DNA from: an uncultured archaeon | GTDB lineage: Archaea > Altiarchaeota > Altiarchaeia > IMC4 > SCGC-AAA252-I15 | DNA: 14,397 nucleotides | Assembly (NCBI GenBank): GCA_964587725.1 | Contig: CAZPLO010000029.1 | Span: 1 to 14,397, forward strand | Direction of reading: 5' to 3' | Part shown: positions 2,527 to 11,332 of the stretch, one piece after another | Position numbering within the stretch: the stretch's first letter is position 1 | Layout: every line of letters starts with the position of its first letter | Notes under the pieces: model-generated | What the model saw: the letters and a program-made list of their open reading frames with translations, nothing else | The model's database searches: none | Told to the model about the DNA's origin: nothing | Translations under genes and position numbers: made by a program

Positions 2527-2542
2527 CACTCTAAAAACATTT

Positions 2543-2616
2543 GCCCTCGTGGGGTAGCCTGGATATCCTACAAGGTTGCGGACCTTGGGACCCGGATTCG
2601 AATTCCGGCGGGGGCA
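2543..2616 (+). tRNA. tRNA-Arg (anticodon GCG), no intron, CCA not encoded
   Basis: Acceptor stem GCCCTCG/CGGGGGC with discriminator A2616. D arm GGGTAGCCTGGATATCCT with A20. Anticodon arm CAAGG-TTGCGGA-CCTTG. T arm CCGGA-TTCGAAT-TCCGG. Confidence 0.96.
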
Positions 2617-2632
2617 TTGTTTCTGATTCCAC

Positions 2633-10021: not shown

Positions 10022-10663
10022 CTATTTTGGTTTTTTCACGTCTTTTTTGGGGCAGAGTTTGTTTACGGGGCATTCCCCGCACAGGGGCTTGCGGGCCTGG
10101 CATGTCCTGCGGCCGTGTTCCACGAACACCCTGTTTATCACACCCCACTTCTCCCGCGGATACAGTCCCATCAAATCCCGTTCAATCTTCACGGGGTCCT
10201 TCTCGCCGGTCAAACCCATCCGGTACGACAGCCTTTTCACGTGGGTGTCCACGGCGATGCCCTCCACCCTGCCGAATCCAGCGTACAACACGATGTTTGC
10301 GGTCTTCCTCGCCACACCCGGCAGCCGAATCAATTCCCCCATGGAATCCGGCACTTCGCCGCCGAACTCGTCCACAATCATCCTCGCAGCAGCCCGGATG
10401 TTTTTAGCCTTGTTCCGGTAGAACCCGGTGCTTTTGATGTCCTCCTCCAGCCCCCGCAGATCCGCGTTCGAGAAATCCTCAGCGGATTCGTATTTTTGGA
10501 ACAGGTCCTCTGTCACAATGTTCACGCGTTTGTCGGTGCACTGCGCAGCCAATATGGTCGCGACCAGAATCTGCAGCGGATTCCTGAAGTTCAACGCCGT
10601 CCTGGGGGCCCTGGAGTACTCCTCCTTAAGCACATCCAGAATCTTCAGCGCGCGGTCGGACAT
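10022..10663 (-). CDS. nth: Endonuclease III (HhH-GPD DNA glycosylase, 4Fe-4S)
   Basis: LVATILAAQCTD, HhH LPGVARKTAN, VDTHV, and Fe-S motif C-x6-C-x2-C-x5-C (CQARKPLCGECPVNKLC). Confidence 0.97.
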   Translation of the reverse strand: MSDRALKILDVLKEEYSRAPRTALNFRNPLQILVATILAAQCTDKRVNIVTEDLFQKYESAEDFSNADLRGLEEDIKSTGFYRNKAKNIRAAARMIVDEFGGEVPDSMGELIRLPGVARKTANIVLYAGFGRVEGIAVDTHVKRLSYRMGLTGEKDPVKIERDLMGLYPREKWGVINRVFVEHGRRTCQARKPLCGECPVNKLCPKKDVKKPK

Positions 10664-10686
10664 GGTAAAGTAAACGCCTTAGCGGA

Positions 10687-10707
10687 ATAAAAGAAAACAC
10701 AGAAGAA
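10687..10707 (-). terminator. U-rich tract ending the putative ncRNA (may double as the nth TATA region)
   Basis: Minus strand TTCTTCTGTGTTTTCTTTTAT immediately after the closing stem. Oligo-U tracts are the usual archaeal termination signal. Confidence 0.45.
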
Positions 10708-10907
10708 GGGTGCTATAGGGTCAGGCAGGGTTTTTACACCCACCTTCCGGAGGAAGATATTCCCTGAAACACCATCTAGCGTAAGCTTGACGGTTTTTTA
10801 GACACCACATCACTCCTGAGAGCATCCAACCGGAGTTGGACAGACAGCCTCCTACAAGGCTGCGCATGGGATGTCTACCAGGTGAATCACCTGATTGCCC
10901 CGCACTA
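10708..10907 (-). ncRNA. Putative highly structured non-coding RNA (or long structured leader of nth), family unknown
   Basis: Seven or more helices within ~200 nt. G-U wobbles (A-C mismatches on the + strand) and a cUCCGg tetraloop point to the minus strand. It is flanked by BRE/TATA upstream and a U-tract downstream, and there is no credible CDS. Confidence 0.65.
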
Positions 10908-10931
10908 TTGGGATATCGTATATGAACACTA

Positions 10932-10948
10932 CTATAAAAGCTTTTCGG
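10932..10948 (-). promoter_or_regulatory. Archaeal BRE-TATA promoter
   Basis: Minus strand CCGAAAAGC-TTTTATAG, close to consensus BRE (cRNAANt) plus TATA (TTTAWA). Predicts a start near 10907-10910. Confidence 0.75.
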
Positions 10949-10949
10949 T

Positions 10950-10967
10950 TTGAACATTATTGTTCAA
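10950..10967. promoter_or_regulatory. Palindromic putative transcription-factor site TTGAACA-N4-TGTTCAA
   Basis: Perfect 7-bp inverted repeat directly upstream of the BRE, overlapping the JAMM stop codon. An extra TGAACA half-site is at 10923-10928. Confidence 0.5.
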
Positions 10968-11332
10968 TCTATTATCTCAAGGCCGAGGCGTTCGCCGTCC
11001 CGGCTGTAGCATGCGATGTCTTCCGCTCCACGGTATGGGTGGCGTATGATGAAGTGTGTGTCGCCCGTCTTGCTGAAGTAGCGGAGGTCCGTGGAAGACG
11101 GGCTGTTGTTCGACGACGGGTGGCTGTGGACGCTCCCTATGATGGAGCGGTCTAGGGGGACATGCATCCACCTGACCTGCGCGAAGCCGCCGCCGTATAT
11201 GCTCGCCGGCACGACGATGACCTCATCCACAGTATCCCTCACTCCGCGCAGCAGGCCCACGAACTCACGGGGATGCAGTTCCCTCGCCACACCCAGCATG
11301 AACTCCAACGCAGCCCTCCTCAAATAGACCAT
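10964..11332 (-). CDS. JAMM/MPN+ (Mov34) metalloprotease
   Basis: Catalytic Glu in PREFVGLL and JAMM motif HSHPSSNNSPSSTD (H-x-H-x7-S-x2-D). Single-domain archaeal size. Confidence 0.92.
   Translation of the reverse strand: MVYLRRAALEFMLGVARELHPREFVGLLRGVRDTVDEVIVVPASIYGGGFAQVRWMHVPLDRSIIGSVHSHPSSNNSPSSTDLRYFSKTGDTHFIIRHPYRGAEDIACYSRDGERLGLEIID

Follow-up and report, generated by a model that had tools for sequence, protein, structure and literature searches.

The 14,397-nucleotide (nt) contig CAZPLO010000029.1 (assembly GCA_964587725.1) belongs to an uncultured archaeon of the Altiarchaeota, and the whole of this stretch is called the window hereafter. Between its JAMM/Prok-JAB gene (10964-11332, minus strand) and its endonuclease III gene, nth (10022-10663, minus strand), lies a gap of 300 nt (10664-10963), which the list of open reading frames (ORFs) confirms to be the longest ORF-free interval of the window, as had been pointed out in the original prediction made from the sequence alone. 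This gap very probably contains an independent gene whose transcript is cut at a motif of the tRNA-intron type to give a circular non-coding RNA of a previously undescribed family. The product, a covalently closed RNA of 181 nt, is seen in metatranscriptome contigs from a relative that is 95-99% identical.

These contigs come from four metatranscriptome runs (X1-X4, each with 14-17% of the sampled words) of a single study labelled as marine sediment, and they were compared with window positions 10500-11100 (601 bases) at a likeness of at least 85%. In all four runs the coverage is confined to 10714-10895, and the depth is zero over the flanking coding sequences of nth and JAMM, which argues against DNA carry-over. 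X1 and X2 each contain a 186-nt contig (depth about 43, five differences from the window) that is circularly permuted, its positions 1-92 being 10803-10894 and its positions 93-186 being 10714-10807. The back-joint thus runs from 10894 to 10714, going back 181 positions, with an ambiguity of one letter and with 92 letters on its shorter side. The contigs of X3 and X4 stop at 10895 and continue with plus-strand letters starting at 10715, i.e., the same joint present as a loose end. The original prediction had expected a linear transcript of 200-220 nt from about 10908 to about 10695; what the contigs cover is 10714-10895 only, joined head to tail. Tandem copies in the genome were considered as the source of the joint and rejected, since the repeat unit of such copies includes the exons and the spacer (about 207 nt in the relative G018). 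X3 and X4 also hold other contigs, of 208 nt, whose likeness to the stretch is limited to parts of it. One of these matches 10729-10752 at either end, which can be read as a period of 178 nt and would fit a second circular family member in the same sediments.

The stem that closes the RNA, 5' GUGC-GGGG-(CAA)-UCAGGUG ... UGCCUGA-CCCU-(AUA)-GCAC 3', is a canonical hBHBh' motif, in which BHB stands for bulge-helix-bulge. It is made of an outer helix (GUGC/GCAC), a central helix of four base pairs (bp) (GGGG/CCCU), two 3-nt bulges, CAA on one strand and AUA on the other, and, as inner helix, UCAGGUG/UGCCUGA. Its polarity corresponds to the layout of tRNA introns, which is shared with pre-rRNA stems. 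The circle begins with the last of the three bases of the 5' bulge and extends to base two of the 3' bulge. In the RNA, read on the minus strand, the joint falls within both bulges, either between CA and A on the 5' side and between AU and A on the 3' side (circle 10895..10715) or one base further on. The canonical BHB cut lies after the second bulge base, and the first of these two placements matches it; the papers cited in this text say only that the cuts lie 'inside the bulges'. The RNA contig omits exactly the approximately 20 nt that form the outer and central 5' strands.

The motif is defined by a 4-bp helix flanked by two 3-nt bulges (PMC7714728), and this definition can be followed through the family described below. 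The 3-nt 5' bulge and four standard central pairs are present in 32 of 32 complete distinct copies. The central helix covaries (GGGG/CCCU, AGGG/CCCU, GGGG/CCCC, GGAG/CUCC, AGGU/ACCU) and so does the outer one (GUGC/GCAC, GCGC/GCGC, AAGC/GCUU, GUGU/ACAC, GGUGU/AUACC), all four outer pairs being standard in 25 of the 32 copies. The inner helix has 7 bp, all of which covary, and the exons are conserved in their BHB strands only. The terminal helix GUGC/GCAC had been recognized in the original prediction and is borne out by covariation, but excision at a BHB and circularization had been overlooked.

With respect to the processing enzymes, the genome encodes RtcB (PF01139, 589 bits) and, within an open frame of 176 amino acids (aa), an EndA domain (PF01974, 114 bits). 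Since both genes are present and the cut sites fit, EndA would cut the precursor and RtcB would join its ends. In the relative G007, a 90-aa gene with an MJ1316 domain (PF04457, E = 2.8e-13; L048:1168-1440) is divergent from the RNA copy (L048:1501-1698). Pfam names this domain 'RNA cyclic group end recognition', and the products of EndA carry 2',3'-cyclic phosphate ends; the adjacency is one case, and the gene may stand beside this copy by chance.

Upstream of the RNA, the minus strand reads ccgaaaagc-TTTTATA at 10948-10933, in agreement with the earlier claim of a B recognition element and TATA box (BRE/TATA) at this place. It is followed by approximately 200 nt of helix-rich sequence and then by a U-rich tract, which had also been noted before and is indeed present. 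The promoter function of the element rests on the archaeal BRE/TATA consensus; judging from the distance to the TATA box, transcription would start near 10910. Among the first 13 copies of the family, TTTATA or TTATATA occupies the same alignment columns in all 11 stand-alone copies and is absent from both downstream copies of tandem pairs. The predicted 5' exon contains the outer BHB strand GUGC (10905-10902), the central strand GGGG (10901-10898) and the bulge bases CA (10897-10896), and the U-rich tract of the 3' exon is likely a terminator. This tract (10681-10709, minus strand) also holds a TTTTATT about 20-25 nt 5' of the nth ATG (10663), which may have a double role as terminator of the RNA gene and TATA box of a leaderless nth mRNA.

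The proposed biogenesis, which as a whole is well supported, would be as follows. The archaeal RNA polymerase would start about 25 nt downstream of the BRE/TATA and stop in the U-tract, giving a precursor of roughly 200-230 nt. Its ends form the hBHBh' motif. EndA would then cut within both bulges and RtcB would presumably join the resulting ends. The joined product is the 181-nt circle, which folds into three nested junctions.

The ORF list includes a 78-aa frame (10721-10957, minus strand) over the same sequence, which might be taken as a real small-protein gene, with the RNA structure being incidental. The chance of this appears negligible: the frame has no Pfam match, its ATG lies upstream of the TATA box, the sense strand is stop-free over the full length in only 1 of 35 relatives (median longest open run, 44 codons), and within the family the indels are not multiples of three while the substitutions compensate base pairs. 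The ORF is therefore rejected and the reading as RNA stands. On the antisense strand, many of the 35 sequences have long stop-free runs (median 56 codons), several of them open from end to end; the window copy, with 43 codons, is not one of these. The base composition of the sense strand, which is rich in G, probably accounts for such runs.

The fold of the RNA is more stable than expected by chance. As a linear molecule, 236 nt of the minus strand reach -85.7 kcal/mol (z = -3.45), a value matched by 1 of 200 shuffles; for the plus strand, z is -1.71, and 11 of 200 shuffles equal its stability. The 181-nt circle reaches -68.9 kcal/mol, against -47.6 +/- 3.8 kcal/mol for 300 dinucleotide shuffles (z = -5.7), none of which is as stable. 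The minimum-energy fold of the circle yields the covarying helices P1c and P2 and not the local hairpin at 10893-10879 (CAGGUG/CACCUG) that had been drawn previously.

Covariation agrees with this. On a plain MAFFT alignment of 13 copies, RNAalifold predicts 51 pairs, 20 of them with compensatory changes. In the alignment of 24 sequences fitted to the covariance model, 91.3% of the cells at paired positions hold standard pairs, compared with 73.6% in shuffles and 32-43% in slid controls, and compensatory changes occur at 55 of 67 pairs, a number matched by 0 of 500 shuffles. With 35 model-fitted sequences, the corresponding figures are 91.5% of the cells, 73.3% and 33-44%, with compensatory changes at 58 of 67 pairs and again 0 of 500 shuffles.

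Covariation shows the predicted fold of the circle to consist of three nested junctions: the first one formed by P1c, P2, P5 and P6, the second one by P2, P3 and P4, and the third one by P3 and its three hairpins (Table 1). P3 pairs GACAUCcCAU (10875-10866) with AUGuGGUGUC (10810-10801); hairpin A occupies 10862-10845, with the loop UGUAGG at 10856-10851, hairpin B 10841-10824 and hairpin C 10823-10812. Every pair covaries in hairpins A and B; the sequence itself is for the most part conserved in P3 and hairpin C. In P6, GGG (10741-10739) pairs with CCC (10730-10728) around the loop UGUAAAAA, which is replaced by a UUCG tetraloop in two relatives. Much of the structure that had been proposed from the window alone is thus borne out by covariation, namely the four-way junction with its three hairpins, the hairpin that is now P4 and the hairpin AUCUUC/GAAGGU. 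Two other helices, the local CAGGUG/CACCUG and CAGGG/CCCUG, are possible in the window sequence and are not conserved in the family; they give way to long-range pairings that covary. The five differences between the RNA contig and the window read as structure-neutral or compensating: a U-G pair becomes C-G in P5, an A-U pair becomes G-U in P3, one junction base changes, and two changes in P2 remove one G-C pair and create another.

Table 1. Features of the circular RNA locus (window coordinates; all on the minus strand).
Feature	Position	Strand	Basis and remarks
Putative BRE/TATA promoter (ccgaaaagc + TTTTATA)	10933..10948	-	Read in the sequence; same columns conserved in relatives
Predicted 5' exon (leader)	10896..10910	-	Sequence and pairing/covariation; outside RNA contig coverage
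Mature 181-nt circular RNA	10715..10895	-	Back-joint of RNA contigs; 10894..10714 fits equally
P1c 5' strand UCAGGUG (inner BHB helix)	10888..10894	-	Pairs with UGCCUGA 10727-10721; 7/7 pairs compensatory (35 sequences)
P2 5' strand AUUCaCCUG	10879..10887	-	Pairs with CAGGGAAU 10766-10759; 8/8 pairs compensatory, 83% of cells paired
Four-way junction	10801..10875	-	P3 with hairpins A, B and C; fold and covariation
P4 hairpin ACCGUC-a-AGC-UUAC-GCU-a-GAUGGU	10771..10794	-	Fold and covariation; 6/8 pairs of helix 11 compensatory
P5 hairpin (10758-10742) and P6 hairpin	10728..10758	-	Compensatory in 6/6 (helix 12) and 3/3 (helix 13) pairs
Central BHB strand CCCU (10720-10717) and 3' bulge AUA (10716-10714)	10714..10720	-	Sequence, RNA contigs and family comparison
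Predicted 3' exon: outer BHB strand GCAC (10713-10710) and U-rich tract	10681..10713	-	Sequence; outside RNA contig coverage

Ligation turns CCCUAU and the A of the 5' bulge into a 7-nt hairpin loop that closes P1c. This junction loop is among the most conserved parts of the RNA, and its bases are complementary to those of the loop of hairpin A, which is conserved and contains UAGG. At least four contiguous Watson-Crick pairs between both loops can be formed in 24 of 32 copies and at least five in 19 of 32, while 500 sets of shuffled loops give means of 4.7 and 1.1 copies and maxima of 11 and 7, respectively. In nine copies the pairing extends to 6-7 bp. Compensatory changes are found in both L071 copies (UUAGG with CCCUAAA) and in L057 (AUGG with CCCCAU). 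These data suggest that the loop of hairpin A pairs with the junction loop across the ligation point, possibly locking the fold; in the mechanism outlined above, the junction loop CCCUAU-A would dock on the UAGG loop once the circle is closed.

The circle might be only a processing intermediate that is reopened elsewhere, a circularly permuted linear RNA being the functional form. There are precedents for such a course: archaeal 16S and 23S precursors are excised at a BHB, circularized and then re-linearized (PMC12918454), and in Thermoproteus a permuted gene for the signal recognition particle (SRP) RNA is made functional by BHB circularization (PMC4731332). In addition, the ends of the RNA are not readable from the contigs. 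Nevertheless, this explanation is improbable, because the X1 and X2 contigs span the whole circle, it is at the inner BHB helix that the covarying fold closes, the high conservation of the junction loop suggests selection on the joined form, and even the tandem loci, which present the permuted order, match nothing in Rfam. The circle, and not a reopened form, would thus be the end product.

Homologues were collected by DNA search in 41 related genomes; clear ones (E <= 1e-5) are present in nine, one of them being a further copy in the genome from which the window comes, and nhmmer defined 13 copies. Seven copies and an author-drawn structure were used for a covariance model, R1, with which all model searches were made. 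R1 matches 15 of the 21 genomes of the taxonomic family, with 21 copies, and 5 of 5 of the high-quality ones. At the level of the order it matches 18 of 49 genomes: 14 of 20 in the family f1 plus the genome of the window, 2 of 2 in f3, 1 of 1 in f4, 0 of 22 in f5 and 0 of 1 in each of f2, f6 and f7. At the level of the phylum the matches are 18 of 61 (f8, 0 of 4; f9, 0 of 8). A lax R1 search of five genomes of f5, f7 and f9 gave a single match, with E = 4.3. An exact-pattern scan found six loci in named relatives, whose titles are 'Candidatus Altiarchaeota', 'Altiarchaeales archaeon' metagenome-assembled genomes or 'uncultured archaeon', and a pattern scan of metagenome contigs found 11 further contigs. 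In total, the family has 37 model matches and 35 distinct sequences, i.e., at least 35 members, with predicted circles of 154-199 nt; the range searches covered one phylum plus the two exact-pattern scans.

The copies are single, present as two unlinked genes or arranged in pairs, and there are never more than two per genome. Directly adjacent pairs with spacers of 2-17 nt occur in three genomes (G004, G013 and G018), and pairs about 240 nt apart are found on two metagenome contigs. Three families of this uncultivated phylum have retained the RNA gene, often in duplicate.

The genes around the copies vary. The window has the order JAMM-RNA-nth and is the only copy found upstream of nth. The second copy of the same genome, as well as those of G013 and G018, lie between a DUF357 gene and a gene for an SSB-like OB-fold protein, an arrangement kept across genera. 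Other contexts are DUF357-RNA (G002), JAMM-RNA-SSB (G001) and CTP synthase-RNA-glycosyltransferase (genus g8). The downstream genes (SSB-like, radical-SAM, glycosyltransferase, PPDK and others) differ between copies and are often convergent. In genus g1, the flanks appear to be swapped between the genome of the window (JAMM-RNA-nth; DUF357-RNA-SSB at C5:14726-15746) and G001 (JAMM-RNA-SSB; L002, L032), which suggests recombination between paralogous RNA genes.

This variation bears on the alternative that had been left standing originally, that of a large cis-regulatory leader of nth, and on its variant in which a BHB intron in the 5' untranslated region (UTR) of nth controls this gene in cis by splicing and the circle is a by-product. 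The RNA has the same orientation as nth, 47 nt separate the end of its 3' exon from the nth ATG, and a 46-nt BHB intron is known in Haloferax from the HVO_1309 5' UTR (PMC7714728). However, the homologues move between many contexts instead of always preceding nth. Since the gene that follows the RNA changes from copy to copy and is often convergent, and second tandem copies lie directly behind the first ones in three genomes, the leader interpretation is discarded. The intron variant is very improbable for the same reasons and also because strong structural selection acts on the 181 nt between the bulges, the exons are conserved in their BHB strands alone and a U-tract follows the 3' exon. A riboswitch or another leader acting in cis would keep to one position upstream of functionally related genes that share its strand, which the copies do not, and this candidate was rejected.

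A selfish or mobile BHB element, i.e., an intron-like RNA or small repeat without cellular function, would be in keeping with the presence of one or two unlinked copies in a genome, with duplications in tandem, with flanks that vary and with the signs of flank exchange between the two copies in both g1 genomes. Yet there are at most two copies per genome, each stand-alone copy has its own promoter element, the DUF357-RNA-SSB locus is kept across genera, no terminal repeats or transposase were seen and structural covariation extends throughout the RNA; this explanation is accordingly as improbable as that of the nth intron, or slightly more so.

Known RNAs do not account for the locus. A scan of the whole window against Rfam 15 at the gathering thresholds gave no match, and scanning the region at E <= 10 yielded only noise (snoR20a, E = 2.8, mostly over the putative promoter). 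Three tandem loci, scanned together with the RNase P locus at E <= 5, gave no Rfam match to the RNA, and because such loci present the permuted order without any Rfam match, a permuted known family is excluded. The original proposal of a novel stand-alone archaeal non-coding RNA is therefore upheld: the gene has its own promoter element, no Rfam match, covariation, RNA contigs and varied gene contexts.

Several specific candidates were also rejected. A divergent RNase P, SRP or 5S RNA is discarded because all three were located elsewhere in the genome, on other contigs: the RNase P RNA at C1:97691-97888 (48.7 bits, with recognizable conserved regions in the alignment), the SRP RNA on C3 (158.6 bits) and the 5S rRNA on C6. 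The RNase P RNA (L035:1501-1698, minus strand) is short, with 198 nt and 48.7 bits against a gathering threshold of 84 bits (E = 2e-11), and lies about 800 nt downstream of the 23S rRNA 3' end on the same strand; it may be co-transcribed with the rRNA. A tRNA intron, or an RNA of the tRNA intronic circular RNA (tricRNA) type, does not apply, since the exons form no tRNA, Rfam gives no tRNA match and ARAGORN finds in the window only a tRNA-Arg (GCG) at 2542-2617 (plus strand). With this tRNA overlapping it, the start that the mechanical list gives to a 164-aa minus-strand ORF is probably wrong. For a pre-rRNA processing stem, there is no rRNA match in the window and the excised part has 181 nt. 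C/D box small RNAs (sRNAs) have C (RUGAUGA) and D (CUGA) boxes and a K-turn near their ends, measure about 50-70 nt and are often circular in archaea; here, the GUGAUGU and CUGA strings lie in the covarying helices P3 and P1c, and the only snoRNA match is noise. Endless-ORF or rolling-circle translation is opposed by circle lengths (154-199 nt) without a multiple-of-three pattern and by the presence of stops, and Shine-Dalgarno mimicry by the AGGAG strings by the fact that these bases, as judged by eye, are not conserved and lie in helices.

As to possible partners, some OB-fold match to the SSB-like gene is found in 55 of the 61 genomes of the phylum, and close full-length matches (E < 1e-30) in 13; in G025 there are two partial pieces, the better one with E = 8e-28. 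Three of these 14 genomes (G005, G039 and G025) have no match to the RNA, and seven RNA-positive genomes lack a close match to the gene. The DUF357 locus was inspected for a diverged RNA in five genomes of RNA-negative families: it is tightly packed in four, and the fifth has a gap of 536 nt with no Rfam match and no likeness to the RNA by eye.

Several points weigh against the interpretation as a dedicated gene for a circular RNA, or limit its reach. The RNA evidence consists of assembled contigs from one study and from a relative differing at five positions, not from this genome; neither strand nor abundance, like the ends, is readable from them, and the minus-strand origin of the RNA would follow from the promoter element, the G-U pairs and the polarity of the BHB. 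The exact cut is ambiguous by one base, and EndA and RtcB are the presumed cutting and joining enzymes. Of the four pairs of the outer helix, one or more is non-standard or gapped in 7 of 32 copies. The alignments of 24 and 35 sequences, being fitted to the structure of the model, lean towards it, and their sequences are mutually related. The contact between loops is uncompensated in L042 (both copies), L041b and L072 and is missing in L056, L058, L059 and L049. The RNA was not found in any of the 22 genomes of the sister family f5 and is thus not universal even within the order. No protein gene consistently adjoins the copies; the SSB-like OB-fold gene was tried as a partner and rejected, since it tracks the RNA only partly, and no link is drawn. 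Finally, nothing in the data points to a specific function.

With regard to function, the nested junctions, A-rich joining strands, invariant loops and possible loop-loop contact speak for a tertiary structure that is compact and has a role in trans, and the RNA would be neither a cis element nor a guide RNA. It could well be a trans-acting, exonuclease-resistant, compact RNA that serves as the core or scaffold of a ribonucleoprotein, although we stop short of calling this probable. That it is a catalytic or ligand-binding RNA is rather unlikely. A more far-reaching idea, speculative and on the doubtful side, is that the locus belongs to the first gene family devoted to a circular RNA that owes the completion of its native fold to circularization itself, by way of the docking junction loop; the result would be a compact RNA with three junctions and A-rich joints, possibly a ribozyme or a ligand- or protein-binding machine of one branch of the Altiarchaeota. 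If true, it would constitute a new class of functional RNA and not a splicing by-product.

Apart from its function, the tRNA-splicing machinery is apparently used here as the normal maturation route of a stand-alone, elaborately folded RNA gene. The locus offers a naturally occurring case of a circular RNA that is genetically encoded and rich in structure, a tractable system for asking whether circularization belongs to the folding code of an RNA, and a new family for Rfam and for genome annotation, which currently leaves it as 'intergenic'. Motif and scaffold may also interest those who build circular-RNA expression systems.

The RNAs raiA, OLE, GOLLD and ROOL likewise have stand-alone genes and multi-junction covarying folds with no assigned biochemical function; they are bacterial or phage RNAs and linear, and none of them was matched in the Rfam scans of the window and the region. 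Among archaea, the BHB circles described in the available parts of the literature comprise tRNA introns, including the C/D-box intron of tRNA-Trp, the 16S and 23S precursors, the HVO_1309 5' UTR intron, the cbf5 mRNA intron and the permuted SRP RNA of Thermoproteus (PMC7714728, PMC12558985, PMC12918454, PMC4731332). The literature search, which covered mainly openly accessible articles, found no family of stand-alone genes with a promoter of their own that encode a large structured BHB circle, nor any such RNA in Altiarchaeota; the absence from print is provisional.

Archaeal tRNA introns and circular pre-16S and pre-23S rRNAs share with the RNA described here the BHB motif (PMC7714728), the cuts inside the bulges, the ligation into a circle and the use of EndA and a ligase such as RtcB (PMC12558985). 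Unlike in those cases, the transcript that carries the motif is not a tRNA and not an rRNA, its exons have only about 15 and 30 nt, and the excised part is a multi-junction RNA of 154-199 nt under structural selection and with its own promoter element. The HVO_1309 intron of Haloferax volcanii is likewise a BHB substrate outside tRNA and rRNA and was detected as a circular RNA (PMC7714728), but it is a 46-nt piece of an mRNA leader, whereas the present RNA has 181 nt, an elaborate fold, several copies and no fixed downstream gene. Metazoan tricRNAs are also stable circles produced by the tRNA splicing endonuclease and RtcB (PMC4536317); they are by-products of animal tRNA genes, without dedicated genes or a conserved complex fold. 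The permuted SRP RNA of Thermoproteus is a structured and functional non-coding RNA whose active form also depends on BHB processing and circularization (PMC4731332). That RNA is a known family with a rearranged gene, while in this genome the SRP gene is an ordinary one located elsewhere and the circle matches nothing in Rfam. Here, a maturation pathway that is already known yields a product of a new kind, and the RNA family is itself new.

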